Positions 36,076-57,035 of a DNA stretch of 64,000 bases are shown here, in pieces (position 1 is the stretch's first letter; every line of letters begins with the position of its first letter). The translations under genes and the position numbers were made by a program. The notes beneath the pieces are model-generated. The model was not told the DNA's origin. It did not search any database and saw only the letters and a program-made list of their open reading frames with translations. The DNA comes from Microthyrium microscopicum (taxonomy: Eukaryota): contig MU004231.1 in the NCBI GenBank assembly GCA_010405405.1, positions 1-64,000 of the forward strand. Direction: 5' to 3'.

Positions 36076-36493
36076 CGTTCAGGTGGAATACTAGAAAAAG
36101 TCGTAATTCGTGAGTCATGGGAGATATGCAAAGTCGGGAATTATGCAAGCAGCGAATCCATTAGTCGTCGAGGGTATAATTAGGTTTATTGTTTTGCTAG
36201 GAGAGAAGAGATGGTTGTCACCAAGTTGGACAGTTGAGATCAACACCAACATTGAAAGTTGACGCGCCTGTTCAGTGTTCGTGCCTGCCAAAGTGCCAAA
36301 GTGGAGGGGCCAGTGCGTGGCTTTCAGGGCCCCCCTGCTTAGCTTAGTTACCCCACATGCCACGTGAAAGTCCTGCCTAACCCTGGTCAATAAATATATC
36401 TTCGTCCAGCTCTTCTACATCTTCCTCTACATCCAAAATACCGCCTTCGCCTTCTACCATCGCACTTACAAGTAACGACTACAACGAAACACC

Positions 36494-37264
36494 ATGTCGG
36501 AACGAAAAGTCCTCCAGAAATACTATCCCCCAGACTTCGATCACACCAAGATCACAAAGTCCAAGGGTCCCAAATCCACCAAACTCCCCACCGTCCGCCT
36601 AATGACCCCCTTCGCTATGCGATGTACGCGATGCGGCACCTGGATCCCCAAATCCAAAAAGTTCAACGCGCGCAAAGAAACACCCGAAGGCGACAAATAT
36701 CTCGGCATACAAAAGTTCCGCTTCTACCTCCGATGTCCAGGCTGCTCTGGCGAGATATCCTTCATGACAGATCCCAAGAACATGGACTACGTCGCCGAAG
36801 CTGGCGCAAAGCGAAACTTTGAACCATGGCGCGAAAATCATGTGGAGGAAACGGATGAGGAGAGATTAAGGAGGTTAGAGGCGGAGGAGGTGGAGGTTGA
36901 TCCTATGCAGGATCTTGAGGCGAAGATGCATGATGCTCAGGAAGATATGCAGGTGGCGGATGCGCTTGACGAGATTCGGGCTGCCAATATGCGACATTTG
37001 AAAGCGGCGGAGGGAGGGGAGGTTACTGTTGCGCCAGATGCTGTGGATGAGGAGAGAGAGCGGCAGGAGGCTGATGATGCTGAAGCTGCTCGCTTAGCAT
37101 TTCAGAAGGTGGGCGCGGCTGAGCCATTGGAAGACTTACAGTCTGTTCAGGAAGTAGCGGAGCCTGCTGAAGTCATACCCATCATTACAACATCATTCAA
37201 GCGGACATTCAAGAAAAAGAAGGATTTTGGTGCTGCGCTTGGACTCAAGAAGAAGACATCTTGA
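36494..37264 (+). CDS. YJU2: Splicing factor Yju2/Cwc16 (CCDC94 family)
   Basis: MSERKVLQKYYPPDFD, CTRC…KFNARKE…CPGC…TDPKNMDY zinc-knuckle domain. Confidence 0.93.
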   Translation: MSERKVLQKYYPPDFDHTKITKSKGPKSTKLPTVRLMTPFAMRCTRCGTWIPKSKKFNARKETPEGDKYLGIQKFRFYLRCPGCSGEISFMTDPKNMDYVAEAGAKRNFEPWRENHVEETDEERLRRLEAEEVEVDPMQDLEAKMHDAQEDMQVADALDEIRAANMRHLKAAEGGEVTVAPDAVDEERERQEADDAEAARLAFQKVGAAEPLEDLQSVQEVAEPAEVIPIITTSFKRTFKKKKDFGAALGLKKKTS

Positions 37265-37390
37265 ATTGCCTTGATTTGCAACGTGATAGATATTTAGCGT
37301 GGAGTTTAGGATATGCATATTAGCTATTATTTGATATAATTACAATCTATCGTCCCAACATATCGCGCCGCCCTACCAAGTCGTACATCT

Positions 37391-40300
37391 CTAAGCCTGG
37401 TCCAAACTCTGATCAAGACACATCTCATAGTAAATGCCTTTGCGATCCAAAAGCTGCGAGTGAGTGCCCGCTTCAACAATCTTACCACCACCAAATACAA
37501 ATATACAGTTACAGTCCCTGACCGTGCTAAGACGATGGGCTACAGCTATCGTAGTAGAGTTCTGAGCCCCATTCTTCAGCGCTTCCTGTACCAACCTCTC
37601 ACTATCTGTGTCCAGCGCAGACGTTGCTTCATCAAGCAGCAGAAGTTTCGGTTGTCGAATCAAAGCGCGAGCAATCGCTATACGCTGTCGTTGGCCACCA
37701 GATAGTTGCGCGCCGCGTGAACCCACTGGCGTATTCAAACCTTCCGGTAAAGATGTGATGAATTCGAAGATATTGGCTTTTCTGCACGCGTCTTCGATTT
37801 CTTGCTCGGAAGCCGCGTGCTCTTTTCCGAGAGCAACGTTGTCACGGATTGTACCTTGATAGAGAGTAGGTTCTTGCTGGACCATGGCGATATTTGAGCG
37901 GTAGGCACGAGGATTGAAATGCTTGATATCCTGGCCGTCGAATTGGATCATGCCCGAGTCTGGATCATAGAATCGCTCAAGTAAAGCAATCATAGTAGTT
38001 TTGCCGCACCCTGATGCTCCCACAAAGGCGAGACTTTGGCCTTGTTCAGCTTTGATGCTGACTCCCCGAAGGACTTTGTAATGTGGGCGGAGTGCATAAG
38101 AGAATGTCAGGTCGGTACAATTGACTTCAGCCGCTGGCCCGTTTCCCATGTCCTTTTCGTGATCAGCGGCATCGGATTGCCTATGCTCTCGCATAGTTGG
38201 CACGATGGAGTGCAGCCAAAGCAGATAGTTCGCTGCCCTCTGTGCCTTGGTGAAACTAGTTGTATACGAGAAGAACTGTGCTGCTCCTTCACCTCCAAAG
38301 ATAACACATACAAAGACGGTAAAGAATTGCGTAGAATTATATTCACCCGTACTCAGCAGACGTGAGCCATACCAGAAGCCGAGTGCCATTGCCAAGAAAG
38401 TGATCGATTGACTACCACTAAACCAAATCATTGTCCACAAAAAGCTCTTGATGGACTGCTTGTTGATGCCTTCGAGTCGTTCTTGATAGCGTTCAAGTAC
38501 GTTTGGTTCGAGCGCAAGGGAAGCTACAGTACGTATAGCAGCTACTGCTTCCGATGCAATAGCTGCACTGGCAGAGAATCTGTCGGCGATCTGATCCTCG
38601 AGTTTACTAGACGGAATGTTAGCCATGTTGACCACATAGCGCTTGAGTTGCAGATTTGAGTAATACATACCTCTCCAAACGTATACGGACGTAACCAAAC
38701 ATGACCATCACCGGCAAAGCTGACAAGGAGATTGTCAAACCTAGCTTCCAGCCAAAAGCAATGGCTACAACGCTGCTGGCGATGATGTTGACGAATATGG
38801 TAATAATTAGGCCGACATTGAAACCAATCAACTCCTGAAGATCTGTAGGTTGAGTCGAAAGTTTTGCCACCAGTGCACCTAGACTGTTCTCGTCTCGATC
38901 GAAAAACTCCATATCCTGGTTCATGAGGTCCTTGAACATTTGCAGCCGGTAAAAGTATGTTGTTTCTTGGCTGATGACACCAGCAGACCAGCCGATGCCA
39001 AAGTATATGAAGAACACTATGATGGCGACTATGAAGAGCATCAAAGCATAAAAGTCACCACGAGATATAGCTTGAGCGGCTGGTAATTGGAAGGCGGTGA
39101 CTGCACGCGCAAAGAGGACTGCTGTTGCTGGATTGACACAACCTCCAAGAGAAGATGTGACAAAGACCGAAAGAAACCAAGGCCAGAGATGAGATTGTTG
39201 CCGGGCAAGGATCCAGAGACATTTGAGTAAGCTGTAATGAAAAGTTCTCTTCTCTGTACCCTCTTCTACGGCGCCGATTGCAGCGTTGGTGTTTGATGTC
39301 TTCAGCCGGAGAAGTTCAGGTCTCGTACCATCTTCGCTGTGGCGTTCTGAGCTACTATCGTCGCCTTCTTGGTTTTGATGAAGGTCTTGCGCTCTAACTA
39401 GGCGAGCATAATCGCCACCTTTAGCAATCAATTCTTCATGTGTGCCTTGCTCAACGATAACACCTTTTGACATAACAGCGATATTGCTGGCCTTTCGTAC
39501 AGTGGAGAGCTTGTGTGCGATGATCAAAGTTGTCCTTGAGGTTGAGACCTTATCAAGTGCCTCTTGTACCATTCTCTCTGCTTTCGGGTCCAGTGCGCTT
39601 GTGGCCTCGTCCAAGAGAAGTACTTTGGGGTCAGAAATGATGCTACGCGCGATCGCAATACGTTGCTTCTGTCCTCCAGATAGTCTTCCAGCACGATCGC
39701 CAACCTGGGTGTCATAGCCATCGGAAAGTCCAGAAATGAAATCATGGGCGAAAGCGGAGATGCAAGCTTCTTGCACAAGCTTCCTCTTATTTGCCTCAGG
39801 CGCAGTGGCATGTTCTGTTCCAACGAGTCCGTATGCAACGTTTTCGAAGACTGTTCCATTGAAAAGAACAGGTTCCTGTTGAACAACTCGAATATTGGTG
39901 CGCAGCCATTGAATGTTCAGTTCGCTAATATCGATTTCGTCAAGCGTGATGCTACCTACCGTAGGTTTGTACCACCGTTCCAGCATTGCAATAACTGTAG
40001 ACTTGCCTGAGCCTGAAGCTCCAACAAGAGCCGTGGTCTTGCCAGTCGGCAATTTCAAATTGATTCCGTTCAGAATAGGAGCGTTTGGTCTTGATGGATA
40101 GTGAAAGCCGAGATCTCGCAGCTCAACTTCGCCTACACATTCCGCTGGAGTCTGGCCAGATGTGGACATTGAGTCGACTTGCGTTTCCCTGTCAATAGTC
40201 TTGAAAAGATCATGGGCGGCCGAGGCTGCTTTGGTGAGGGTCAAGGTCTGTGGTCCAATTTGCGTCAGAGCCGAGGCGGCAACGATGACAGCGAAGATAA

Positions 40301-41310
40301 CGGTGACAACAGACCCGGAAGTTGCGATTTCCCCACTGACATACATATGAATGCCTCGCCAGAAAGCCAGACCATAACCAGCAGTGACGCAAAAGAATTG
40401 GATTGAAAAAAGCACGCCGTAGTTAGGTCTTTTCTTGCGGCCTTCTCGTTTAGCTTCAAGGAGGATTTCATCATACTTGTCAGCTAGACGAGGATGCATC
40501 CAGAATGCGTGAACGTTTCGAATACTGGAGATCACATCTTCCGCAAGAGCGCCGGCTCTGCCGTAGGCATCTAGGATTTTTCCTTCGCATTTCACCTCAA
40601 CGCCAATACAAATTGCTACCACAATCACGATCGTCGGCACAATGCTCAGTGTGATCAGTGTCAGTTTCCATTGCACAGAGAAGGCCTGAATTTGGTTAGC
40701 AGGACTCGACGAAGCAACAGATCATGGGTGTACGTACTACTACGAATGCTGCAACGAACGTTGCAATTCCCTGTACTCCAAGACCAAGCTTTTCAGCAAT
40801 GCCAACATTAACCAGATTTCCGTTCGTTGTAATTTGAACAGCCATGGCACCATTGCTGGCTTGATCGAAGAAAGCAATGTCCTGACGCAAAGCTTGTCGC
40901 AAGAAGTCGATTCGCAATGCCTTGGTAGTCTGTAAAGCTGAGATGTTGACAGCCACGGTCCAAATATACGTCAAACAAAACCTGGCGATGAAGAGATAGA
41001 TGAACCATAATGTCCAACTCGTAGATTGCGAACGAAATTCAGCTGGGGAGAGCTTTCCAGTGCCAAAGTCTGTGAAGGTGGTGACAGTCCTGCCAAAGAC
41101 TAGATTCATCAACGGGAGAAGCGCCCCTGAGATTATGGCTGCCACAAGGGCAATGAAGTTTAGGATCCATCCAGTTCTGTTGGTATATTTGAAGATTCGC
41201 CAATAGCTCGCCCAGCCGGCTTGTTCTTTATCTTTGTCATTGGCGCCGTCATTTGCCTTATCGTTCGCAACGTCGAGAGTGACATCCTTCGAAGGCGCAT
41301 CTGCAGGCAT
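37391..41310 (-). CDS. Full-length ABCB (MDR/P-glycoprotein-type) transporter, about 1267 aa
   Basis: TMD-NBD-TMD-NBD; Walker A GASGSGKST and GASGCGKTT, LSGGQ signatures, LLLDEATSALD. Introns 40686-40737 and 38607-38670 give a 3804-nt CDS. Confidence 0.95.
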
Positions 41311-41624
41311 GATATTCGGGGAAGAAGATGATTCAATTGGTGAGAATTGAATTGGAGAAACAGGAGAAGTTCAACATACATATATAGTACATACTGAAGT
41401 GCGACTACTTTTCACCATGCCACATCGAATAATGGCCACATTTTGCTCGACGTAGAGCTCGATTAAGCTACCTACGCGACAGAGAGGTTGTAACCTTGTC
41501 CAAGATGGGAGCGATGACAGGTTGATGTTCAACTACGTCGATTGATTGGCAGCTTCGGGATTGACGCGTTTGTTGTTGGTGGTGGTCCCCCTGATCGACG
41601 TGCGAGCAGCCGAAAGCTGAGAGC

Positions 41625-41657
41625 TGATTGGCTCCACCGGCCCGCGGCGGCCAATCA
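41625..41657. promoter_or_regulatory. Inverted CCAAT boxes flanking a CGG-rich core in the ABC/TF divergent promoter
   Basis: TGATTGGC (41625-41632) and GCCAATCA (41650-41657) enclose CGGCCCGCGGCGG (41638-41650). Confidence 0.5.
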
Positions 41658-41860
41658 AATACATATCAACGGGTAATCGCCTCGCTTATCATGGTCCTCA
41701 ACTCTCAGCACATCAAGTCCATCTAGACAACGCAAAATCTCAAGAAGAGCGAAGTGTTTTCTCGGAGCTTGAGAGCAGGCTTGGGCAGATCCTCAAGTGT
41801 ACGGCTACCGAGATCTTGGTTGATTTCGAAGCAGGGGACATTAGATATCAGGGTGCCAGA

Positions 41861-44314
41861 ATGCCAGCAGTACGTCCGACGGTATCGTATTGAACCAATG
41901 CTGTAGCTAAGATCATTACCAGTGCGATACCTGCCGACTACGTAAGGTAACGATGTTCCTTCGTGCCCAGATGACACTGTATTGATAGCGTCAGATCCGC
42001 TGTGACAGGCAATCGCCTTGTAACTCTTGCGTATTATCAAAGTTCGATTGCAGTACAAGCTCGAAGCGATCGCGAGGCGCGCGCAAGGTTGATCTTACAC
42101 TCCGTCAAAGGTATGTACTATAGATACATCTTATAGAAATATCTTTGTTTGCAATTTCTAACTATCTACTCATCAGCGGCAATTCTCTACATGTGCTTAA
42201 GCCAAAGACAGCCACTAACACATCCACTGTTCCAAGGCACAACGATCTTAATGGCAGTTCGGCAAAGCGTATCTCGGTTGCGCCGCCAGATCCGTTTAAA
42301 TTACCTAATGTTTCTCTCGTTGCTTCGGAGGGTGTAGAATTCGAAGGTGAATCCTCACTACACGCTCATTCCAAAGCTGCTCAAGATCTTCTGGAACAAA
42401 CCCTTAGCAACCATTCCAATGTCCGTGATAACCCCAAGATGGTTGCCGCTTTGAGGTCGTTGCGCCAAATAGTAGATGCGGACAAGATCGAACCTTCACA
42501 GAAGAAAAACAACTTGGTAAGATTGAGCGGACATCGCCAATCTATTTATGAGCTCCAGTTGCCGCCAACAGAGGCAGTTTTGGACATTCTTCGCAAAGCA
42601 AAAGGTAAGCAAAGCACTTTCGATGTGTCATTTTTTAAACACTTGAGCATGAATAATACTCAAAGTCTCTAGAACGAACCACCTTTGTCTTCAGCCCTCC
42701 TCTCTCATTTATACCTCGTGACCAATTCACCGAACTCTGCAAGAATGTTTTCTTCCGCACGGAGGATTATCCTATCTCCACGGCAGTGATTGTTCATGGA
42801 ACGCTCAACAATCTCTTAAAGGAGTTTGAATGGGCTGAGAAGGATCTCACGCTTCGACAAAAATACAGCGAGTGGGTTAAGCTATGTCGCACAAACCTTG
42901 AGATGAGCATCTCTAGTCTCGATATACTACTTCCAACGACTATGGAGAGTGCTCAAGCCTTAATAATTGCGGCATCTTACTGTATGGAGATTGCTCAAGC
43001 TTCAAGTTGTAAGAAGTTTGTAATACATGGTTGTATGGTTGTTCGATCTTTAGGCTGGCATCGTTCATCATCTACGAAGAACGATAGCGAGCTTCTTCGA
43101 AACCAAAAGCTTTTGATTTTTTGGGTGCTTTATTCGCTAGACAAGTACCTTTCATTGCGATTAGGTCAAGCATCATTCATCCAGGATTATGATATTGATA
43201 TTCCTTCACCTCACATGGCCACATCTGGTCCTCGAACCCCATCAGGCCGCCTGGATATGTGGGTTAGAGCAGGTAGTGTCACCAGCCTCGTTTATGAGAA
43301 ATTGTATTCGCCTGGCTCTTTGGGCCAGACAGATAATATGCGCATTCAGTCCGCTCTACAGCTTCTGAAACAGGTTGAGGAAATAAAACCAACGTTCTAC
43401 GATAAGGTCAGTTTTCTGTTGTAAAGACGACAGTCCATTTCGGAGCATGGCCACTAACTGCAGTTAAGGACAATATTTCACAGCTCATCCAAAATCCGCA
43501 TTCCTCGCCGCCTGCCTTTTTTTATGAGATCAACGATATGCTCTTCAAATCCGACGAGATCACCTACCACGCCCTTCTCTGCATGATCTACCGTGCAACG
43601 CCATCAGGTGCGATGTTGACCTATGACCCGGCTGGTCGGTGCATAGAACATGCTCGCGCCGCATTGGAATGTCATAGATACTGTACAGCTACTTTCAAAT
43701 CTCAGACTGAAGTATGGGCCATGTACTTGCACTGGTGAGTCTCGCAAAAACTTGCTACAATCGTAGCTTATCTTCGTAACAGAGTAGTGACTGATCTCCA
43801 TATAGGACTATTCTGAACACCCCTTTCGGTCACTTTACCACCCTTTTCAGCCATGTACTGAAGACGCACGACCGCTCTGATCTGGAGCGCCTGCAAGATT
43901 TTGCAGCTTCCATGTCCGGATTCTCCTCCTTCACAGCCCGCATATAAAGTCTCCCGAATTGCTTCAGTCTTTGTCAGTGTCGCAATGGTGTATATCGAAT
44001 CAAAGGAGCAAGAAGCCCGAAACGCGTTCAGTGAGTCGCAGCGGCCTTTGTCGCCAAACTCTCATAGCTCCACAAATGCCAATGCCAACGCCTTCCCGCA
44101 CACAACTGCAGACTCGATGCCAGCATATGCGCCAATTGATCCACTTCTAAACGCTCTTGGTTTAGCATATGATCCTTCCTCTAGTGTGAATGGCAGCTCT
44201 GGAACAAACGCCGATTTGGTAAATTGGTTCAATGGCAATCAACAGATCAACGGCCTGTTGGAGGATGATCTGAGCTACCTAGACGATTTTACTCTAAACT
44301 TTTCCAATACATGA
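41861..44314 (+). CDS. Zn(II)2Cys6 fungal transcription factor with apparent frameshift in the last exon
   Basis: Spliced binuclear cluster CDTCRLRK|IRCDRQSPCNSCVLSKFDC (exons 41923-41946 and 41995-42110). Fungal TF middle domain FWVLYSLDKYLSLRLGQ. The start codon is uncertain. The last exon frame stops at 43945-43947 while the plausible C-terminus continues in the +1 frame. Confidence 0.85.
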
Positions 44315-45256
44315 GGCTCAGGGGAAGATACTTCCAACTTTCAGAACCTGTCGACCTCCATAACTGTTCGCATATAAAACACGCCAAGACGAATATGACT
44401 GCATGGTAGACACCGCAGTCGATGGGAAAACGCCGATTGTTTTGCCCGCTTACCTGTTATTGCCGCCAATACCTACCTCTTGATCTTGAACTTTCCATAT
44501 CTACAATTGTAACTCCATTACTAATGCTGTTCGTTCAGGTCAAATTCAACCAATAGAAAGGCGGTTCAAAATGTCTGAATACCCTAGTGACGGCGTATTC
44601 TTGCCACTTTCGCCCGCATCTCGTACTGACCGGGTGCCTTAAAACACCTACCAGGTATGACAAGAGCAAATCGTAACGTTCGCGACAGGGTTTACACCAA
44701 GTATCCACGCGGGCTAGCCCGTCGGGATCCTAGCCGTAAGAGCTATCCAAAAATGGCCAAAGAGACGACAAGACTCATACACCTTTCAGTTGAGACACCA
44801 CACAACCCATCAGGGATCAGTTTCTATGATACTCACTCCTTAGTCAACCAGAACAAGGCCACACGTTATGATGGGGGCAACACGTTCTCCATGAACTGAC
44901 TTTACGGTTCTACTCCCTGGGTCATTGTCGATCATTGATGTATTTGCACTTTGGAACTTTTCCAATTCTTCGTTTGTAGTGTCCTGAAAGCTTTTTCATC
45001 GAATCTTCATATAAGGCAACGACGACTTCGTGCAAGGTATACTCCCGCGTTGCCTTATCTTTCTTCTCTGGTAAGACGCGTGGGAACGTATATTGGGGCC
45101 GAATGAGCACAAGAATTTTTTTCAATGGTGTTATTTCCAAGTCTCAGTCGTTATAAATGTCATCTTCATCTCGTAAAGCATTGCCTCTGCTATCAAAGCC
45201 CTCAAATGTCGAACTTTGAATGTCATGCCTGACAACCAGGCCTGCACGTTTCTCAA

Positions 45257-45269
45257 CGGCCCGCGGCGG
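45257..45269 (+). promoter_or_regulatory. CGG-rich 13-mer identical to the one in the ABC/TF promoter
   Basis: CGGCCCGCGGCGG about 375 bp upstream of the predicted NOS ATG; TATAAA at 45550. Confidence 0.45.
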
Positions 45270-45641
45270 GAGGAACCATAGCCACATGCAGGGTAATAGA
45301 CCTTGAAGGAGGCCAGTTTTGCCTTGCTCGTTTGGTAAGAACATAACCTTATGTTCTAATGTTTGTATTGTATTCGTGTCACTATCATTCGGCTGCTTAC
45401 AAGTATCCCGCGTGAGCTTTCAGGTATACGCAATGTATCAAATATGTGCTCACCAGATTTATGGGAAAGCTACAAGTTACCTAAAACGTGTTGTTGATTT
45501 TTAACATTCAGGTGGCCAAGGATCGTGACTTAGCTCAAAAGCTTATTTGTATAAAGAGTTCTTTGTTCAAGCGCTACAAAGTATTGTAGTCATTCAAATC
45601 AAGTTAATACTTGACTTCACTTCATCATTAGCTCCTTTACA

Positions 45642-48600
45642 ATGGAGAGCTTCGATTCAGACAGTGACACAACACTCCCTTGGGAGCCATCAGCCCTTTT
45701 GGAGGTCTATAACGAGAAGGTGGGCTTGGAGACTTTCACTGTCAAAGGTACGACTTCCTTTTGAGGTGATCTCGTGGGCGCGACCTATGTTTCTACTTGC
45801 AGAAGTCTTAATCATTTGAATGTTGCGCTGTCATGTGGACATATGTTATTCTCCTGCGCGTTCTTTCCAAATACTTCAAACCTCCCAAAACTAACTCATT
45901 CGTAGAACTTTCTTCTGACCATATGGAAACCGCTGAAATCCAAGAAATAAAGATGCCCGATGCGCGTATTGAACAGTACAATGTTCCAACACAACAATCC
46001 TCAGCAGCGCTGGAGTTCGAAAACATCAAAAGACAATGCCCTGTCCTCGCTTCCACTGGCTGCAACGCCGATTTTTGCCAATCAGGCCGCATGCTCCACA
46101 CAGACGAGCCAAGAGTTGGAGAGAACCGACCCATTGAAGTTGTCATGAACGAAGCAGAGCAATTCCTACGAGAAATGCTACAGGGAGGCCTCTTCAGCAC
46201 TATCGATGAATGTGAGGAGCGCATAAGAGTCGTCCACGCGGAAATATGCTCCAACTCACGCCACGGCATCATTCCCGGACAAGAACAGCTTGGATTTGTT
46301 GGAGGAATTTATTACCAGTCCACACAGGAGCTGGAATTTGGTCTGCGGAGATCATGGCGTAATGCGCGAAAGTGTATAATGCGCTCGCAGCACGAAACAC
46401 TTGTGCTGAAAGACCTGAGACACATCACATCCAGTCTGGAGATGGCCAATGAGGTTATCAAAGGTATGCAGGAAGCCTTCAACAAAGGCAGTATTCGGCC
46501 GACGACTTTTGTTTTTCCCGCGCGCACCGTTGACCAACGAGGACCGATGATCATAAGTCAGCAGTTACTCGCTTTCGCCGGCTATAAAATGAATGATGGA
46601 AGCATTCTGGGGGATCCTGCCAATGTTCAGTTGACGAAAGATATTATCGAGCTTGGATGGACACCACCTGAATATAAAACGAGATGGGATCTCTTACCCT
46701 TCGTCACGCTGGCCGAGAACGCAGCACCCGCCATCGTTGAATTGCCATTGAATCTCCAGAAGCTTGTACAAATTCGACATCCTCGATATGAATCCGCCTT
46801 TGAAGACTTGGACCTAAAATGGGTAGCTGCACCAGCTCTAAGCAGACTCGGATTCGATATAGGAGGCGTTCAGTATACAGCAACTCCATTCATCGGCTGG
46901 TTCATGGATGCGGAAATCGGAGTACGGAATCTAGCAGACAGCTTTCGGTATAACGTTCTCCCTGACGTAGTCAAAGCTTTGAAGTTGGAAGGTAGCAAAG
47001 ACTACGATGATATGGACGATCTTCCTGAGTACGAAAAGCTCGCTTTACTCTCAAGAGCACAGGCAGAGCTTACCTACGCTGTCACTTGGTCGTTCCAGAA
47101 CGCGGGAGTCTCCATCTCCGATTCATTCACAGCATCTGCAAACTATATTGAGTTTGACGATGCCTTCAAAGCGAAGCATGGATATCGGCTACCAAGTGAC
47201 CCTTATTGGCTTGCTCCACCACAGGGAAGCATAGTACCAATCTGGCATCGTGGAGGTGCGCCGAATTATCAACCAAAACCACTGATTGCAAAGCATGTCC
47301 TGAATCCGATGAAGGCATGGCGAAGAGAAGTGGCGAGATATGTCAAGGCTGGTACACCAGTGCCCGAGATCATAATCAAGAAGAACTCGTACAGCTCGCC
47401 AGTACGGCAGCTGGCGCCCGTCAGTGCCAAAGCTATTCCCAACCAAATTATCGCACAATCCATTTCCGTGGCAACTTCGATCACAACACAATTCATCAGC
47501 AATAAACTTCAAGGTTTTGAAGCCTTGATGGGTACCGACAGCTGCCATATTGCAATTCATTACTGCACTGCTGGAACGACAGCTCGAAAATTAGCGGATA
47601 AGCTTCACAAGAAGATCGCCATGTACCTTGCAAAGACCACAAGTAAAGTGATCTTACACAACATCGCAACCCTGGACGCCATTGAAGTTGACGAACTTGG
47701 ACCAAATACTCTACTGCTATTAGTAGTAAGTTCGACAGGTTTTGGCGATATTCCAGCAAATGGGCAAGCGTTCTACAACGCCTGCAAGCTTCGAGAGAAC
47801 AGCACCCCAAAGCTGAACTTTAGATTTTCTCTCTTTGGCAATGGCGATAGCAGATATGCAGACTCATATAACGGAGGCGCATTGAAGGTTTTGGAGGCGC
47901 TTAATGGAATTGGAGGCACTTCACTCGGTGGATCTGGCTTCTTTGATGCAGATACTGCCTTGGAACCTGTGCCAACCCAAGCATTGGACCGATGGTTTCA
48001 TGCATTACAACAGCCATATGATGCCGCCTTGGGAGTCAACGGCCAAATGACCATTCATGACAGCAAAGGAAATATCACAATTCCACTCAAGCGAGGATCA
48101 ATAGTTGATCCATGGACACTCTTAGTCCAGCAACTCAAGATTCTGACTGCGCAGTTCGTCCCGGCCACCATCGTCGATATAAAGCGCGGCTCAGAACTGC
48201 CTGGAACTGGTTCCATGATAGTGACGCTTGATGTGGGAGCGACCCCTTGCGTGCATCTGGGCTGCATTCAGGTATTGCCAGTGAATTCGCCAGCAAAAGT
48301 TGAGACAATTCTGAGCTTGCTGAATCTTGATGGAAGCGAATGGCTTGATCTTTCAAAGACCGAGGCAATCATCGGGATTACAAATAAGCGATTCTTTGCG
48401 GAGCTCGTGGATTTGGAGGCACCTTTCTCAGATCTTGCGTGGATATCACAGCTCAAGATTGGCGAAAACATACCAGAAGCATCTATAGATGGACTCGGCT
48501 CTTTCAAAGTGCTCCAATACCTTCAATCGCAAGGCCTATTTCCTGAGTATGTCTCGCAGGAAGTGCGTAAAAATATCATTCTGTCCATGCGTCTGCTCAC

Positions 48601-49219
48601 AGAACGAGTATTCTCCGTGGCCTCTTCGGCACCTGTTCTTCGGCTGAAAGGGTCCCAGAAGCGGACATGCAACGAAGTCGATATTATGGTCAAGTCCGTC
48701 GCCAACGGGCGCTTCAGCGATGCGTTTCTCTCCGCTTGCTCTCTTCCCGTCGCATTACAAGTTCGGAGCATCGAAGCTGCTTGCACGCGTAAACTGACAG
48801 AATGGACTGGGCAAACTCATATGGTCGCTATTGCAACTGGTGCTGGCTTTGGTCCTGTGAGAGCTCTTTTGCAGCGTCAGATTGGGCTTTCTCGGGAGAA
48901 GAGTATGTCCGTCTTTGTCGGCGTCAAAGCATGCGATGTCTCGCTCATATCCGATGTATTGGACGAAGCAGCCATCAGTGGCATCGCCGACGTTGTGGAT
49001 ATTGTGCCAAGCAACGAAAACAAGCTTCGGATTCAGGATAGATTCTTGGAACCTTGTAATCGTCAACATCTGAAGAAGAAGATTGAAGGTGATGGTGCTC
49101 TGGTGTTCATCTGTTCTGGGCAGATCCAAGCGACGGAGATAATTCGCAAGCTAGATGAGGTTGTGGATGGGGAAATAAGAGTAATTCTCGGAGAGCGACT
49201 GATCTTGGAGGTTTATTAG
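45642..49219 (+). CDS. Nitric oxide synthase-like protein (oxygenase + flavodoxin + FAD/NADPH reductase), about 1139 aa
   Basis: TGCNADFCQSGRM (Cx4C), heme motif WRNARKCIMR, QLLAFAGY…GDPAN, PFIGWFMDAEIGVRN, DPYWLAPPQGS, FMN motifs VSSTGFGDIP and FSLFGNGDSRY, FAD motif RVFSVASS, NADPH motif TGAGFGP. Model: exon 45642-45747, phase-1 intron 45748-45905 (GTACGA…CTAAC…TAG), exon 45906-49219. Confidence 0.92.
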
Positions 49220-49949
49220 CTTGACGAAGGAAGGCGAATGGTGAAGAGTAGAGTAAGCATAGCGAGGTGTCGGAGCAATTGCCAGTAGTGATAGATCAGG
49301 CTCTTTTCTTGCCCTCAAAAGCAATACACACGATTTTGATATTTTCTCTTCGCAACTGGCATGTCTTTTGTTCCTCATCTATTCTTTCCATGAAGTATCC
49401 AAGATTCTCAAAGTTTGAAGTCTTATCTGGCTCTATGGCACGCGCGCTGTTCCGAGGTTTATAAACACCACGTCTTGGTAATTGGATCTAGTAGTTGAAG
49501 AGTCGTAAGTAATGGTAGCCCAGTACGTTGCTCATGTAAATCCAGATTGACGAGAGCATGGGACCAATAAATGAAACCTAAGGGTATGTCGTTAGGTAGA
49601 ACTTAGAAGACAATCGAACGATAAGACCAACGTCAAATGAAAAGGGGCAGGGGCGATGAAAGCATCGAATCTCTCGTTCGTATTCATTTGGCGCCCCTTT
49701 TCAACACCAAGACCTGCCTCGATCTGGCCATAAGCAGAAGCAGCCTGACGTCAAGCATTGTGATGAGTTCTTTTCATCTGACTTCGTCGTGGTTGGCAAC
49801 TGTTCTTGCAACGTCAATCGTGGGTCTGTCTGAAAGATGTCGCAGAGTGTTATGCTCTCCATGACACGAATGCGCTTTCTCATGTCAACGTGGACGCGTA
49901 TTCAAGACAGTAACTTCATCACCAAGGACGGCTTCGAGAATAAGCGGTC

Positions 49950-51872
49950 ATGTCACAAGCGCTTTATGAAGACCTAAAACTGGACGCGAACCAGACACGC
50001 GTTCTCGTACTGCAGCCATGCCGAAAAGACAAGGACCCCATCGTGTGTTACCTGGAGATTGTCGACTTGACTAGTGGATCATCTTCAATCAATTTTGAGG
50101 CACTATCTTACGTTTGGGGCAACCTATCTGACCGGCGCGATATTCAAATTGGGCCTCATGTTGTGGCCGTCACCCTGAACTTGGAGAAAGCGCTGCGCTG
50201 TCTTCGTGGTCGGAAGCGTAGTCGGCGACTATGGGTAGATGCCGTCTCAATTAATCAGAATGACATCCCGGAACGAAACTATCAGGTCAAGCTAATGTCT
50301 AGCATCTATCGAGATGCCAAAAAGGTACTCGTCTGGCTTGGTGAATCAGACAAGGACATTGAACGCACTGTCAAGTGGATGCGAAGATCTCTATCTCCGG
50401 GCTTCTTCGACGTCTCTATTGCCAAAGGGACCAATGACTCAAAATGGCATTCAAAAACAGATTCTCCTAAGGATATTCCTGCATCAAATCCAGTCACGAA
50501 TTGGTTCCGGAGGTCCCTGCTCTGCGGATCTGGTGAGATCGCCACAACTGACATCAAGTCGGATCATGGGATGCAAAAGCTGCTTGAAAACCCGTATTGG
50601 CAGCGAATGTGGACTTGTCAAGAGTTTGCACTGGCTAGTTGGGATCCCATTGTGATCTGCGGTCGAAGCTCTTTCGAGGCTAGTTATCTATGGCCAGCTT
50701 TGCACGCCAAAGGACTTCTTCAAGACATGTCGATGCTCTGGACGGAGGATGGGATTATCAACAACGGCTTTACCTCGAATTTCCCCAACATTCAGACATC
50801 TATCTTAATCAGACACGCTATGGACAACAGAGGATTGCTTCCGTACCGGCTCGAACCTAGTCTTGGTTTGTTCCTCAGCATGACTTGCGCCAGAGAATGT
50901 ATAGACCCCAAGGATAAGATATATGCGCTTTATGGATTGGTGCAGCATCAGGATACATTGCCTGCTGCGGACTACGAAAAGTCCACAGAAACTATTGTTA
51001 AGGAGACCTTGTCGTTCCTGATCAACGAAAGGGATGAGGTTGATGTTTATAGCTTCCTAGGCACCTTCTCAAAATCCGACAAAGTATCCTTTTCATCATG
51101 GGTCCCAAACCTATCAGATGGCAGCTTACGCTCCGCAAAATGCCCAGCACATTTCATCAGTCGTGAGATCTGCTCGCATGGTGGATTTCGATTTGGTGGC
51201 GCTCAAGATCAGCACAACGGTCGTGTTTCCCCGGACCTTACTACCCTCGTTGTCCACGGAATTCAGATTGACAGACTACAGAAGATATTTGTGTTGGGTA
51301 ACAACCTATCGCAACTGCGGACACAGATTATCGAAATTCAGGAATTGCTGAAACACAATCAATCCATCAATAGACGCGAGCTCTCAATGGTCAAAACAAG
51401 TGAAAATCAACGTCCTATAGCTGAGCTCATCAACAAACCAGGAGTACAAAACCTGTGGACAACTTTAGCTCCACGATTCGATGACAACCATGGCATCAAA
51501 GACATGGACTCTTTACCTGTCCAATTCGAAAAGTTTCTAGGCACCTCAGACATTGTTGACGGAGTATATCCAGGAATGCGAGCTTCTCCCGCCCTTGTGC
51601 AAGCTCTTGAACATATGTTTGGCCGGTCATTCTTCATTACAGAACAGGGAATATTCGGCGTGAGCGTCCCTGATGTCCAAGATGGCGATGAGCTTGCGCT
51701 ACTCTATGGCTTCAAAGTTCCATATATTCTGCGAAGAAGTCCTGAATACCTTGGCGCGCATTCAGAACCTTTCTTAATGGTAGGTGGAGCATATGTTTCG
51801 GGCGTGATGCTTGGTGAACTTGCTGCCGTGGAAGGCTTGAGTTCTCGCATGAAAGCTTTGAAGATAATATGA
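49950..51872 (+). CDS. HET-domain (heterokaryon incompatibility, HET-6-like) protein, 640 aa
   Basis: FEALSYVWG, LWVDAVSINQND…ERNYQVKLMSSIY, YWQRMWTCQE, DPKDKIYALYGL, SWVPN, C-terminal GD…PYILR…VGGAYVSGVM. Confidence 0.93.
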   Translation: MSQALYEDLKLDANQTRVLVLQPCRKDKDPIVCYLEIVDLTSGSSSINFEALSYVWGNLSDRRDIQIGPHVVAVTLNLEKALRCLRGRKRSRRLWVDAVSINQNDIPERNYQVKLMSSIYRDAKKVLVWLGESDKDIERTVKWMRRSLSPGFFDVSIAKGTNDSKWHSKTDSPKDIPASNPVTNWFRRSLLCGSGEIATTDIKSDHGMQKLLENPYWQRMWTCQEFALASWDPIVICGRSSFEASYLWPALHAKGLLQDMSMLWTEDGIINNGFTSNFPNIQTSILIRHAMDNRGLLPYRLEPSLGLFLSMTCARECIDPKDKIYALYGLVQHQDTLPAADYEKSTETIVKETLSFLINERDEVDVYSFLGTFSKSDKVSFSSWVPNLSDGSLRSAKCPAHFISREICSHGGFRFGGAQDQHNGRVSPDLTTLVVHGIQIDRLQKIFVLGNNLSQLRTQIIEIQELLKHNQSINRRELSMVKTSENQRPIAELINKPGVQNLWTTLAPRFDDNHGIKDMDSLPVQFEKFLGTSDIVDGVYPGMRASPALVQALEHMFGRSFFITEQGIFGVSVPDVQDGDELALLYGFKVPYILRRSPEYLGAHSEPFLMVGGAYVSGVMLGELAAVEGLSSRMKALKII

Positions 51873-52238
51873 TTCATCATATTGGTGAAGAAACCGAAGT
51901 ACCTGCTTTACGCGCTTATGATATCAGATCCCAAAAATGGGGCAAAAACGAAAATGTCAGAACACCGGTACGAATGAGCAGATACTACTCGTCAGTTGGA
52001 CTCGGATTCTAATGGCATTGTCATGATGACTTATATTTCTGATGAATAGAGCAACGTATATGACATTCGTTGAGGGTACCATTTCAAACGAACGAATTAC
52101 GTCTTATGCGAAATGAAATTGGAAATCGTAAGAAACAGATTCTGCTATCAATTGAAGTTGGGAGAAGGTTGCGTATTAGCACACATCACAGTCACTTCTC
52201 GACTGGATCTGAGGGATCAAAGTGATCTTTTGAGAGAA

Positions 52239-53546
52239 ATGTCCGACCCATGGAACTACCTATAAGGGAATGAACTCCGCAACCTTGCCTCGCGAACTTT
52301 CTCGTAACTGCACCATTGAACCATTCCGTAATTGCTTCTCTTTGGAGTCTGGACCGGACTTGACGTCGAACTGGAAGCTCTTTTTAGAGGCCCTTCTCTC
52401 CAATTCTTTCAAACTCGTTCCAGAGTCCATGCTATAGGCTTTCACACAACGAATCGAGCGACAGCGAGGAGATATCCACGGATCTTTGACACCTGCCTTT
52501 CATATCAGAAATCATGTAGCGAATGGCTAAGCTAGCAAGGAATTGCCCCTGGGAGTCTATGAGACCTCACTACCACCACGAACTGGCACCGAAATTGCCA
52601 ACTGCCTTGAAAAATCCTCCAAGCTACTAGACTTACTTATTACCCGGTGAAAGCCTTCAGAGCACGCATAGACCACCATTGAATTGATAAATCACGCTAT
52701 CACAATTTTCTGGCCTTTCAATGCTTCTCAACGAGTAGTATTCCTCCGCTAGAATATCGAGTACTCTGCCCTGAAAGCTATGGCTGTATTCTGGACATAG
52801 AGGCCGATGTGCTGACTTCCAGCTCATATCTCCTTCCAATCTGGGTATCACTGTTCTGCGGCCAAAGAAGTGTTTCAAGCTACGTGTAGCTCCTAGAAAC
52901 GTGGTTTTTATATGATGTGCAGTTCTAGTAAAGTTATCTGTGTATCGTATGATACCCAGCAAAGAATTTTGAGGCTTTGACTACTACTTCTATCAGAGTG
53001 TTGTGTATTATCGCCAACAATGCTTCAATAGGCTCTTCCGGTTTCTTGGGCAGCGGGTTTATCTCCTGCCACGGGATGTGTTCCAACTTGCAAATCCATC
53101 CATGCAGCAACTTAATGTTCACATATCGAATCATGGTGGATTGGCGCTAGTTAGCCCTACAAACGACCAACTGGTCCAACGATCAAGGGTTACCCATTAT
53201 GGACTTCAAGATGTTGTTGGGATAAACCCTGAGAACAGTATGAATTCCTTCTTTGAACCAAGAATCTGACTCGGAGCTTCGTAACAAAGCGATCATGGTC
53301 ACCTCGTGGACATTCTACGATTGGTATATGATCTATTCGATCAATCTAGCTCATAATCCTTCCCGAATGGTTAAATATTCCTTGCATCGAATCATCGATC
53401 ATCCCGACTTGAATAACTCTACTCTGCATGGCATTGAAACCCTGAACCCCTTCGGCAACGTGTCAAATGATCTAAGCTTCAATCGGAGCTTTGATATTCC
53501 AAGAAATGGTTTCCACATGGAAGCTTACTATCTATCGTCCTACTAG
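52239..53546 (+). pseudogene. Possible decayed gene of unknown family
   Basis: Chain of short protein-like + frames (52332-52535, 53003-53269, 53253-53546) separated by stops; no domain recognised and strand uncertain. Confidence 0.2.
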
Positions 53547-53773
53547 TTGTAGAACAAACTAACCAATCCGGCAATGGCCTCATCTACTGGGGCTTGAGAG
53601 CCTCCCAAGGATCGTCTAAGCATGGTAACTCTACGTGCTTTTACACACCCGCTCGCCAATTTCTGGTCACTGCGCCAGACGGTTGTCATTCTTACTTTTT
53701 GTGTTGGGTTCAGGTACTCCAAGCTTGTTGTTCAACGCACTCTTGGTGCTGGCTACGCCAGCTGAATGACGAG

Positions 53774-55498
53774 ATGTCCGAAATAGGGAAACCAGAGCCT
53801 GGAAGCGACATATTTTTCACCTCATATTTCATCCCGCTTTCAATCGTAGGCAAATGGCCTCCACCTAGCGGCGCAAATGCTGAGCGAAGGACCTGGTATG
53901 TGCCGTATGCGATATTTCTGCAGGTGATCGCTGCGCTGTGTGTCGCGATACGATTCTACGCCACTTATACAAAGCGAATACGGGCATTTGGAATTGATGA
54001 CGTTCTTATAATAGGTGGAATGGTAAGAATCAAGACGACAACTTGCTGTTGCGCATGCTGACTCAATTGAGGTATTCGCCATAGCCTTCACCGCCTCGTC
54101 AATATATGGTACGCATTTTCGATCCAAAAATCATCACCCTCACTGACATTAGTAAAGGCGTGCTCCATGCTGGGTTCGATACGCACATATGGGAAAATCT
54201 GCTTACAGGCGAACAAGCTGGATTTGTATGAACATTGAGATACTGCTTTTCAGACCACTCTAACAATCACAGGTCGCCTGGATCAGCGAGATATTGTTCC
54301 TCGCGAGTAATTGCTTGACTAAATTATCAGTCTTGCACTTTCAACGACGTTTGATACAACGAACCCATAATCCTATCATACTCCGCGCTATCGACCTCGG
54401 AATCGCTTTCACGATCGTCTACTTTTTCGCCTTCGTCCTCTTCCTCATGTTTGCTTGCTCACCAACGAATGCGTCTTGGAAATCAATGAACATTAATTAC
54501 AATCAGCCTTACAAATGCGTACACAGAAACGTTATTGACCCTATGGTTGGCGCTTTGTCTGCCGTCAGCGATGTCTACGCTTTAATTGTTCCAGAAATCC
54601 TCATATATAAGTTGCGCATGGAAAGAAAGAAGAAGGTGGTACTCTATATCATATTTGGTTCAGGTCTCATGCAAGTATACAGAATGAAACCTACCTGAAA
54701 GACATCTAACACCCCTATAGTGTATCTGGTGCAGGATTGGCACGAGCAGTCTGGCTAGGACGACTTTCAACAGACTCACTGCGAGATCTCACTTGGGTTG
54801 GGTATAACATTCTCGTTTGGACTCAATTGGAACAACAGGTAGCGCTGATTACTGCTTGCGCACCTGCACTGAAAGCTTTCATAAGCAATGTCAAGACTGG
54901 CGAGACTCGGACTGGAGGGTCAACCTACAAAGGATCAAATTACGGAACAGAGTTGAATTCTGGCAGTAACTTTCAGAGCGGTACAAACATGAAACTGGAG
55001 AAGGAAATTGCCTATAACAAAGGCATTTTGGTGGAGCAACGAGTATCATTGAACAGTGTCCTTATCTCATCTTCGGCATCTGGAAAATCTGCTTCAAAGC
55101 CTTTCAATGAGGTGACTGTTGAGACAAACAAACTGGACGACATCAACGAGATACAAGAAAGGCCTTCTTTCTCCTCTCCAACAAGAATGAGTCCCTCACC
55201 AGCGGACGAAATTCAAGATAGATCCTCGTTCTCATCACAAACAAGGTTGGATAAATCATATTCTTCATCGCGATCCGATCGGCCCAGCCCGGTAGAGGCC
55301 ACAGCATATTCTCCACATGCGACACGATATCCTATAGACGATTCACCCAAGGAACCGGCCTCAATATTACACGGCACGTTCTCACATTATCCAACAGAGC
55401 ATTACACACGCCCAGTGCCTGTTGCCAAAAATAGCTGGACTAACAAGCTTTCAAATCCAGCAAACCGATCAAAGGCGATGCGAGTGTTAGAAGGGTAA
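53774..55498 (+). CDS. Pth11-like (fungal rhodopsin-domain) integral membrane protein, no CFEM domain
   Basis: AIRFY…FGIDD, GFDTHIW, LTKLSVL, ACSP…W, DVYALIVP, WTQLEQQVALITACAPALK. Introns approx. 54022-54071, 54109-54157, 54226-54272 and a GC-AG intron 54671-54720. Confidence 0.9.
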
Positions 55499-55847
55499 AG
55501 CAGCCAACCTGAATTTGTTTTGAATACTTTTAACTTGACGATATAATGATACCCAACTTTAAGTTCTTGCAACCTAAGCTGAATTCCTGTGTCCATATAT
55601 GTTCTATTTCAGGAAATAATACGTTTCTTCTTTTCATTACTAGAATCAAACGGTCTCTCGTTCATATACATTAGATGAATATCATTTGTATCTTGAAGAG
55701 AATGACTGATGGTCAAAGTAACGCATTGGTGGGATGCTGATCCTACCTCGGATAAATCAGGCATCATTCAATTACCAAGTCGCAGCCTCAGCCTCATGCT
55801 ACCAACTTTTCCATTTCCTCTATCTCTTTTCAAGCGGTGTTGATAAG

Positions 55848-57035
55848 ATGGGCTTCAGCGGTACAGCTCTGTTGCCATTGGTGTCAGAAGCTGACATACA
55901 GGCCCTTCTCGTAGACATCGGACTTCCAAGAGCAACATCTGCTGTTCCGTTAAACGCGGCGGCAGACTATCATTCCATATACATACTCAGCTTCGACAGC
56001 CATCCAAAATTGACAGACCTAAGCGGCGACAGAGTATTAGAGAATGAGATCGTGGAACTCGTCCTTCGAGTGGCTGGAACACAAATACCCAGCACAAAAA
56101 CAATCAATGAGATTGCATCAATTGAATGGGTGCGCAAGAACACTGAGAACATTCCCGTGCCAATCATACTTCGCTTTGATGCTAGCACGACGAACGCCCT
56201 GAAGCATGAGTACACTCTGATGAGCAAGGTTTCGGGTATCAGCGTTGACAGAATCTACAACAACTTGAGCCAGACAGCAAAAGACTCTTTGGTTGAACAA
56301 CTTGCCTCAATCGTTCACGAATTACATTCGCACACCTGGGACCGTGTCGGTGGACTGGCATTTGATATCCAAGGCGACATTATTCCAGGCCTAGTTGTCG
56401 AGGAGACATTTTGGCAAACACAAGATCTACCACTCTGGAACGATGGCACCTTGCTTGAGGACTTGAATATTTCGGGACCTTTTTCGACTTATGGAGGATA
56501 TGCTCTTGCGCATCTGGGAAAATATAACTATATGATCAATAAACACTCGAAGCTTAAGCCTTTCAGGTCTCTTGAGCCACATATTCAAGCTCTGGAAAAG
56601 AGCATAGTCTTGAAAGCAGGTGCGGTCAACGATGTACGGTACATTCTAGCTCACAGGGACCTGCATTTTGGAAACATTCTTTGTGATCCGGAAACCTGCA
56701 AGATCACAGCAGTATTGGACTGGGAGTTTGCTGGTGTATGTCCAGCCTTTCGATGGAATCCGGTCAGAGCGTTTCTGTGGAATTGCCAGAAAATTGACCA
56801 GAGTCAAGATGAGAAAGACGCCCTTTTCCAGAAGTTCGAAGCCATCTGCCTATCAAGCTATCCACGACTATTAGAGGGAACTAAGCCAAATAAAACACAG
56901 GAATTGGTTAGCACGGCCATCAATCACTTGAGGGCGATAATCGAAGTCTCGGTCAAGGGTGGTGCAGTTGACAGGATTTCAGCATGGGAAAGTATATTCA
57001 CAGAGTCTGTAGATGCCCTTTCACATGTGGCTTGA
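55848..57035 (+). CDS. Aminoglycoside/choline phosphotransferase (APH) family kinase-like protein
   Basis: LVLRV, IPVP, LAHRDLHFGNIL, TAVLDWEFA. An upstream in-frame ATG exists at 55734. Confidence 0.88.
   Translation: MGFSGTALLPLVSEADIQALLVDIGLPRATSAVPLNAAADYHSIYILSFDSHPKLTDLSGDRVLENEIVELVLRVAGTQIPSTKTINEIASIEWVRKNTENIPVPIILRFDASTTNALKHEYTLMSKVSGISVDRIYNNLSQTAKDSLVEQLASIVHELHSHTWDRVGGLAFDIQGDIIPGLVVEETFWQTQDLPLWNDGTLLEDLNISGPFSTYGGYALAHLGKYNYMINKHSKLKPFRSLEPHIQALEKSIVLKAGAVNDVRYILAHRDLHFGNILCDPETCKITAVLDWEFAGVCPAFRWNPVRAFLWNCQKIDQSQDEKDALFQKFEAICLSSYPRLLEGTKPNKTQELVSTAINHLRAIIEVSVKGGAVDRISAWESIFTESVDALSHVA

Follow-up and report, generated by a model that had tools for sequence, protein, structure and literature searches.

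Does an altered substrate pocket in a fungal nitric oxide synthase (NOS) point to a new chemistry, or does it mark the family to which the enzyme belongs? This question is raised by a NOS gene in the first 64,000 nucleotides of contig MU004231.1 of Microthyrium microscopicum (the whole of this stretch is called the window here). A first-pass annotation of the gene had described a pocket that keeps the guanidinium-binding Glu and alters the carboxylate-binding and gate residues, and had proposed that the enzyme acts on a decarboxylated or derivatised guanidine, or retains nitric oxide (NO) for transfer, in keeping with a neighbouring exporter. Judged by alignment and phylogeny, the pocket pattern is the default of a widespread, known fungal NOS clade, with nothing in it particular to the window gene, which is itself a new member of the fungal NOS-like clade already described (PMC4160249, PMC10889981, PMC4778047).

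The NOS open reading frame (ORF) has 1128 codons (45833-49219, plus strand) and contains the interval of that annotation. From N to C terminus, the gene encodes an oxygenase, an unconserved linker, a flavodoxin and an FNR-like reductase, the last two binding flavin mononucleotide (FMN) and flavin adenine dinucleotide (FAD)/NADPH, respectively. Its features are listed here with the equivalent residues of neuronal NOS (nNOS) in parentheses.

45953..49219, plus strand, the full-length fungal NOS gene, starting at M41 as in the public model P0002, with the frame open from 45833
46061..46078, plus strand, Cys-X4-Cys (C77 and C82), aligning with the zinc-site cysteines of animal NOS, both inducible (iNOS) and nNOS
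46355..46393, plus strand, heme-ligand motif W175-H187, with C181 (C415) and W175 (W409) kept, G417 replaced by M183 and W421 by H187
46562..46573, plus strand, Q244 (Q478, kept) to A247 (R481, lost), from the alignment
46823..46846, plus strand, V331 (Y562), P334 (P565), the gate L336 (V567) and a new R338 (N569)
46889..46948, plus strand, F353 (F584), I354 (S585), W356 (W587), F357 (Y588), D359 (G590) and A360 (T591)
46889..46948, plus strand, the same segment, E361 (E592, the guanidinium ligand), R365 (R596), N366 (D597) and R372 (R603)
47192..47257, plus strand, pterin/dimer-face segment, with W459 (W678) and H472 (H692) kept, W676 replaced by Pro, F691 by Trp and E694 by Gly
47558..47956, plus strand, flavodoxin (FMN) domain, residues 576-708 (Pfam PF00258, E 4.7e-11)
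48605..49216, plus strand, FAD/NADPH (FNR-like) part, with RxxS, GxGxxP, Cys1094 and a C-terminal Glu-x-aromatic end

The matching public protein, P0002, is a hypothetical protein of M. microscopicum that starts at M41 and omits residues 500-516; the public model removes 51 nt of the linker (47330-47380) as an intron, and no such joint was present in the RNA contig. The gene lies about 46 kb from the chromosome end, where telomeric hexamer repeats occupy positions 1-85 of the window, which is the start of contig C2. By dinucleotide indices, no signature resembling repeat-induced point mutation (RIP) was found in the NOS gene. A second NOS paralog of the same genome (P0052; C5, 843649 onward; L007) is 64% identical in the core, contains introns and has the same pocket; it adjoins MFAP1 and importin genes.

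We addressed the identity of the oxygenase and the register of its pocket residues by family, structural and pairwise comparison. Pfam NO_synthase (PF02898) matched residues 104-475 of the window protein with E 9e-87 and 291.8 bits (cut-off 22.7). Residues 60-500 were modelled with AlphaFold2 from 86 sequences (pLDDT 95.2), and the model superposed on nNOS and iNOS heme domains with Z 45-46 and a root-mean-square deviation (rmsd) of 1.6-1.8 Å over 384-405 residues, and Foldseek gave TM scores of 0.82-0.85 against mammalian heme domains. By family score and predicted fold, the window protein is a member of the NOS oxygenase family. The phmmer alignment to the nNOS chain 8t1j_A, in which the numbering of C415 is that of rat nNOS, was free of gaps across all four motifs; together with the structural superposition, this ruled out mis-registration, so that the substitutions noted at first sight are real and in register. 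The mammalian motifs that the first-pass annotation had quoted were found letter for letter, all four, in horse iNOS (P0404). Its interval (46559..46935) was slightly too narrow, as the heme motif lies just outside it, and its change of Asn to Ile at position 354 holds against iNOS, which has Asn there, and not against nNOS, which has Ser.

Around the heme ligand Cys181 the window protein has K180, M183, S185 and H187, and the alignment preserves W175 and F353 as the heme stacking pair (W409 and F584). The guanidinium-binding Glu and Trp are kept (E361, W356), whereas the animal-type residues on the carboxylate side (Y562, Y588 and R481) and the gate V567 are all replaced. Among 108 animal NOS, positions 247, 331, 336, 354 and 357 are nearly invariant (Arg or Lys in 106, Tyr in 105, Val in 107, Asn in 107 and Tyr in 106, respectively), so that the substitutions in the window protein do not reflect chance. 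We take Tyr562, Gln478 and Asp597 to lie at the substrate carboxylate, and Arg481 to line the channel without binding the substrate directly. Glu592 is described as binding the guanidine and Tyr588 as hydrogen-bonding the alpha-carboxylate, and Ile at position 567 as slowing NO dissociation (PMC6120233); Gln478, Arg481, Asn569 and Ser477 are named as substrate-channel residues (PMC10343299). Thus, the view that the carboxylate side differs from that of mammalian NOS, and that the difference matters, agrees with the roles given for Tyr588 and the gate in PMC6120233.

To whom this pattern belongs was read from three overlapping sets. A homolog search found 321 proteins, of which the best 120 were listed, every named one among them fungal; leaving out P0002 gave 119. 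Among these, L336 was present in 118, V331 in 94 (Tyr in 11, Lys in 8), I354 in 94, F357 in 107 (Tyr in 10) and E361 in 118, and none had Arg at 247, where S, A, E, N, D, Q, T, G and M occurred. The positions of C77 and C82 held Cys in 112 and gaps in the other 7. For the second set, the best 150 of 1384 HMMER matches were added, and the sequences were filtered at 280 or more aligned columns, thinned at 80% identity and split at 47% identity to the query, which left 52 clade and 102 other NOS representatives. The 52 clade representatives showed L336 in 50, V331 in 44, F357 in 48, P334 in 51, Q244 in 45, D359 in 50, R372 in 51, M183 in 48 and C181 in 51 (one gap); position 366 was Asn in 29 and Asp in 21, and Arg was not among the six commonest residues at 247. 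The guanidinium Glu was kept in all 52, as the first-pass annotation had it for the window protein. In the 102 others, a group that takes in an animal-like second fungal lineage (Pterula, Rhizoctonia, Dendrothele), the gate was Val in 56, Ile in 39 and Leu in 6, position 357 was Tyr in 84 and Phe in 18, and position 247 was Arg in 71. A separate plasmid search returned other NOS only from bacteria and archaea, at less than 60% identity.

In the third set, a FastTree phylogeny of 231 rows (ten near-identical Aspergillus rows dropped), 127 clade rows, including the named fungal NOS-like proteins, were set apart from all others by a long branch (support 100). The combination of Val, Leu, Ile and Phe at 331, 336, 354 and 357 with a non-basic residue at 247 was found in 73 of the 126 other clade rows and in 0 of the 104 rows outside the clade, and in 27 of those 126 every one of the 16 pocket positions compared carries the residue of the window protein. 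The clade signature as defined in this analysis (M183, L336, R338, D359/A360, P457, W471) is complete in the window protein. A gene-specific pocket change was therefore ruled out by the counts among homologs, representatives and tree rows, and the impression of a specially altered enzyme did not survive the comparison.

Within the clade, the tail side of the pocket varies by lineage. Glu occupies position 247 in 22 rows, and Asp247 occurs with Lys331 in 8 rows, which form a subclade (P0018, P0027, P0028, P0036, P0039, P0040, P0046 and P0109) that includes a Cladonia protein; P0109 has Lys at the catalytic Glu position. The Aspergillus NOS (P0054, P0059, P0063, P0072, P0077, P0080, P0097, P0100, P0104, P0107) carry Tyr at both 331 and 357 and are nested in the Val/Phe clade, so that both Tyr were apparently regained together in this branch. 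In the family as a whole, changes at positions 331 and 357 go together (9 independent pairs; p 0.03-0.22, median 0.03). Since the two positions change jointly, were apparently regained together in Aspergillus and have mostly lost Tyr in a second fungal lineage described below, the Tyr pair is a part of NOS pockets that evolution holds loosely.

Two further features, missed by the first-pass annotation, are the clade-fixed R338 at the position of N569 (46 of the 52 representatives) and the Asn at the position of D597. A basic residue at 338 was found in only 1 of the 104 rows outside the clade. As none of the 231 rows is basic at both 247 and 338, and 112 of the 127 clade rows are basic at 338 only, a shift of the charge from one side of the channel (247) to the opposite side (338) is suggested. 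The tail site retains Q244, N366 and R372 and has gained an Arg, and it should fit an anion at least as well as that of bacterial NOS. R338 and the Asn at D597 would suit an anionic substrate tail better than agmatine, and we infer that the site is unsuited to the extra bare amine of that compound.

The pterin side is changed as well. The equivalents of R596, W678 and H692 are kept, and those of W676, F691, E694, H651 and H652 are replaced throughout the clade, which indicates that the pterin and dimer face was rebuilt; within the segment, the 52 representatives have W459 in 51, P457 in 49, W471 in 52 and G474 in 50. The roles of the residues in this segment are assumed here. An exon-by-exon search of the genome, in which absence is not proof, gave no match to PTPS. 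GTP cyclohydrolase I was found at two loci (C2 2356042-2356735 and C6 1546495-1547059), the second without a pterin-pathway neighbour among the ORFs scanned. In the linker (residues 501-580), the top-residue frequency was 0.14-0.29 among 107 full-length homologs, and this alignment shows no conserved calmodulin site there. The FMN and reductase motifs are conserved in the same 107 (S928 in 106, C1094 in 103, and the terminal Glu-x-aromatic). The reductase is 21% identical to that of horse iNOS over 565 columns (BLASTP, E 7e-9), and the Pfam FAD and NAD models had no match in the window protein; the fused FMN/FAD/NADPH reductase is thus present as in animal NOS, strongly diverged.

Comparison with known systems places the window protein more closely. 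With mammalian nNOS, iNOS and endothelial NOS (eNOS), it shares the fold (Z 46, rmsd 1.7 Å), Cys-X4-Cys, the heme sandwich, the equivalents of E592, Q478, R596 and W678, and a fused diflavin reductase; it differs in its 38% core identity, the changed Tyr pair, R481 and V567, the altered pterin/dimer face, the unconserved linker and the lack of a C-terminal tail after the aromatic end. Bacterial NOS (of the bsNOS, TxtD and PtnF type) resemble it in a bulky gate, Asn at D597, NO used in metabolite chemistry and, probably, a pterin other than tetrahydrobiopterin (BH4); however, their gate is Ile and not Leu, they keep Tyr588 and R481, and they mostly lack the zinc site and the reductase. A second fungal NOS lineage (Pterula, Rhizoctonia, Ceratobasidium, Dendrothele; P0282, P0302-P0309, P0311) is closer to animal iNOS. 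It shares Met at G417 and Cys-X4-Cys with the window protein and has lost Tyr562 in 10 of 10 and Tyr588 in 7 of 10 members, but it lies outside the clade at 40% identity and keeps R481, V567, W421, W676 and the His-His pair. The NOS-like proteins of Aspergillus oryzae, Colletotrichum, Neofusicoccum and Macrophomina described by Sarkar (2014, PMC4160249) belong to the same clade and have the same architecture. The Aspergillus, Colletotrichum and Neofusicoccum proteins are 53-59% identical to the query over residues 60-500; the Colletotrichum members carry the pocket signature, whereas the Aspergillus members have Tyr at 331 and 357 instead.

The most informative relative is Lepista (Collybia) sordida, which has four NOS-like proteins on one contig (GHP15257, 15259, 15260, 15261). 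In 2022, Ito reportedly used labelled arginine and one recombinant NOS. The three intact proteins are 65-68% identical to the query oxygenase core, have the same pocket and share K180, M183, L336, R338, I354, F357, E361 and N366. The L. sordida proteins P0024 and P0123 (65-67% identity) equal the window protein at all 16 pocket positions. The fourth, P0144 (GHP15261), has Trp at the heme Cys, lacks the pterin segment and is probably inactive. L. sordida has a multi-gene array, whereas in M. microscopicum a single gene lies at the window locus and its one paralog on C5. No L. sordida protein was among the 120 listed matches of the other fungal NOS lineage. Table S4 of PMC6458111 gives seven NOS candidates for L. 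sordida; six of them share a scaffold, and for each of the seven the nr hit given is the same protein, from the dothideomycete Coniosporium. A fungal NOS is reported to have been demonstrated to contribute to the triazine of 2-azahypoxanthine in this species (PMC10831120, citing Ito 2022). This report is the strongest sign, if an indirect one, that such a pocket makes NO from an arginine skeleton.

The genes next to the NOS gene were analyzed for the exporter link that the first-pass annotation had drawn. A transcription factor and an ABC exporter lie upstream, and HET, rhodopsin-domain and APH genes downstream; the two upstream genes are as follows.

37391..41310, minus strand, full-size ABC exporter of the multidrug resistance (MDR) type (Pfam ABC_tran, ABC_membrane)
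41800..44314 (start approximate), plus strand, fungal transcription factor (Pfam Fungal_trans) with a Zn2Cys6-like start, its Cys pattern visible in the translation, and five GT..AG joints

A metagenome scan gave 65 loci, 29 of them assigned to the clade by their residues, and the neighbours were searched by tblastn against 76 loci. None of the six ORFs used (ABC, transcription factor, HET, rhodopsin, APH, Yju2) had a match beside the 29 clade loci or the paralog; the only matches at any of the 76 loci were those of the ABC ORF at L036, L038 and L042, all with bacterial-type NOS. The flanks were at most 10 kb, and 15 clade loci had 10 kb upstream, a span sufficient for an exporter at the spacing seen here; these 15 collapse to about 5 independent neighbourhoods, plus the paralog. 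Pfam searches covered 59 ORFs hand-picked from the 106 ORFs of at least 170 aa in 18 loci, plus three window ORFs. The neighbours at clade loci were mostly housekeeping genes (DNA polymerase eta, glutathione S-transferase (GST), inositol phosphatase, glycosyltransferase, importin and similar), and no core gene for a polyketide synthase, non-ribosomal peptide synthetase or terpene was seen among the nearby ORFs scanned. At the metagenome loci L023-L028, the gene immediately upstream of the NOS gene encodes DNA polymerase eta, and beyond it lie genes for GST and inositol phosphatase. At L017:7197-8639, a berberine-bridge-like (BBE-like) FAD oxidase gene lies just upstream of a divergent clade NOS with R244 and K247. 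Linkage to an exporter or biosynthetic cluster in the manner of TxtD or PtnF was rejected, as the neighbours are not conserved and no core enzyme occurs among the ORFs scanned. The proposed tie to the exporter is not supported, the paralog too having housekeeping neighbours, and the adjacent exporter is probably incidental.

The transcripts of the locus were viewed through one run (X1), guessed to be RNA and from one condition, whose contigs give neither strand nor level. Across 36200-55900 it showed 12 joints: nine GT/GC..AG in plus-strand genes and three CT..AC, of which two belong to the minus-strand ABC gene and one lies inside the NOS gene, the last being the following feature.

46617..46697, minus strand, antisense intron of 81 nt, a CT..AC joint in run X1 that reads GT..AG on the minus strand, in one contig

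An antisense transcript is thus spliced within the NOS gene. The intron overlies conserved NOS codons 262-289, no long ORF crosses it, and its splice sites showed no general conservation in the homolog loci. The contig that carries it reaches position 49531, close to where the HET gene begins, and a divergent promoter may lie there.

Taken together, the sequence and model comparisons place the window protein in the main Dikarya fungal clade and predict a heme-thiolate NO synthase that is self-sufficient. We consider it reasonably probable that this enzyme makes NO from L-arginine and N-hydroxyarginine, its carboxylate site being rewired and its Leu gate hindered, and that it is probably slow and uses a pterin other than BH4. 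Electrons from NADPH would reach the heme by way of FAD and FMN, and L-arginine would be converted to N-hydroxyarginine and then to citrulline and NO. The guanidinium would be anchored by E361, W356 and P334; on the carboxylate side, Q244 and N366 would stay while two Tyr hydroxyls are gone, and the positive charge given by R481 in animal NOS would be supplied by R338 instead. With a bulkier residue at the gate and Tyr588 lost, binding would probably be weaker and NO output low or slow, as in bacterial NOS; the cofactor would probably be tetrahydrofolate or another non-BH4 pterin; and NO or a nitrosating species derived from it may serve signalling or N-N chemistry. Moreau is said to have found in 2004 that nNOS V567L forms NO from L-arginine and N-hydroxyarginine at lower rates, and Sato in 2001 that nNOS Y588F retains much N-hydroxyarginine oxidation and that a Tyr588 mutant gained activity on agmatine or an arginine ester.

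Several observations count against this assignment. Mutation of Tyr588 is described as strongly altering binding and oxidation, and bulky residues at 567 as lowering L-arginine affinity 100- to 300-fold, in a study that did not include Leu (PMC6120233); BH4 is reported in some ascomycetes (PMC4778047). The proposed relocation of charge is imperfect: 15 of the 127 clade rows are basic at neither 247 nor 338, and a tree-aware test of the exchange was not significant (2 of 6 independent pairs in the same direction, 0 opposite, p 0.5). The Val/Leu/Ile/Phe combination, found in none of the 104 outside rows, could mark a real change of substrate. Finally, given the antisense-spliced contig, read cover over the NOS gene is not evidence of sense expression.

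The rival explanations share much of this evidence. That the whole clade prefers a derivatised guanidine with an acid group or an extended tail (4-guanidinobutyrate, N-alpha-acyl or peptidyl arginine, arginine amide), with the Tyr-to-Val change opening room and R338 binding a repositioned carboxylate, is a conceivable but doubtful account, and it is the form in which the derivatised substrate of the first-pass annotation can still be entertained. It would explain the loss of both Tyr hydroxyls, the clade-fixed R338 and D359, and the lineage-wise tail-site swaps (D247/K331, E247) around an invariant guanidinium site; non-amino-acid guanidines are, moreover, described as oxidised by mammalian NOS (PMC6120233), and the genome has five ureohydrolase-family loci, so that its guanidino metabolism may extend beyond arginine. 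However, biosynthetic neighbours are not conserved, Q244, N/D366 and R372 are kept, and L. sordida, with the same pocket, is reported to make NO by NOS (PMC10831120). A decarboxylated guanidine such as agmatine, its product leaving by the neighbouring ABC exporter, is decidedly improbable. It draws on the lost equivalents of Tyr588 and Tyr562, on the gain of activity towards agmatine or an arginine ester that is ascribed to a Tyr588 mutant of nNOS, and on the exporter and transcription factor upstream, but the gain of R338, the retention of R372 and the change of D597 to Asn leave the tail site no more acidic, the Q478 equivalent is kept, and neither the paralog nor any of the 29 clade loci from metagenomes has an ABC match beside it. 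In addition, an exon-by-exon search, in which absence is not proof, found no arginine decarboxylase of the speA or pyruvoyl type and one group IV decarboxylase locus.

It is also unlikely, somewhat more so than the derivatised guanidine, that arginine is bound and little free NO comes out, the Leu gate trapping NO so that nitrite, nitrate, nitrosating species or uncoupled superoxide or peroxide appear, so that the enzyme would serve nitrogen transfer or redox chemistry in place of signalling. The gate Leu is nearly fixed in the clade (50 of the 52 representatives), Val-to-Ile is described as slowing NO release (PMC6120233), the equivalents of W421, W676, H651/H652 and E694 are changed, and N-N bond use is reported in L. 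sordida (PMC10831120). Yet Leu is not Ile, Ile-bearing bacterial NOS still make NO, and the account overlaps the slow L-arginine NO synthase that we prefer, differing only in degree. The earlier proposal that NO is held for transfer gains some support here, NO being reported as a metabolite nitrogen donor for a fungal NOS (PMC10831120). That the window copy is silent or redundant, covered by spliced antisense RNA while the C5 paralog does the job, is very improbable: the minus-strand intron form is kept in an RNA contig, the paralog has the same pocket and the gene lies 46 kb from a telomere, but the ORF and all catalytic motifs are intact, no RIP-like signature is present, and the contigs, from a single run and a single condition, are blind to strand and level.

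A bolder extension would treat the entire Dikarya clade (127 rows; lichens, saprobes, Colletotrichum, Ophiocordyceps, Lepista) as a distinct functional class, with a fixed Leu gate, a lineage-retuned Arg-for-Tyr tail site and a rebuilt pterin face, that oxidises guanidines other than free L-arginine or holds NO for N-N bonds, without BH4 or calmodulin and here under a spliced antisense RNA; we regard this as speculative and doubtful. If the clade truly used another guanidine, it would be, to our knowledge, the first class of natural NOS whose substrate differs. The clade-wide pocket and pterin signature was not found described in the literature searched, a coverage that leaves out most subscription journals, and the source of arginine-dependent fungal NO is still called unclear in PMC10889981. 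The signature predicts that mammalian inhibitors and BH4- or calmodulin-based assays may misreport fungal NOS. Thus, the gene is ordinary for its clade, yet the clade-wide signature makes the question of fungal NO testable.

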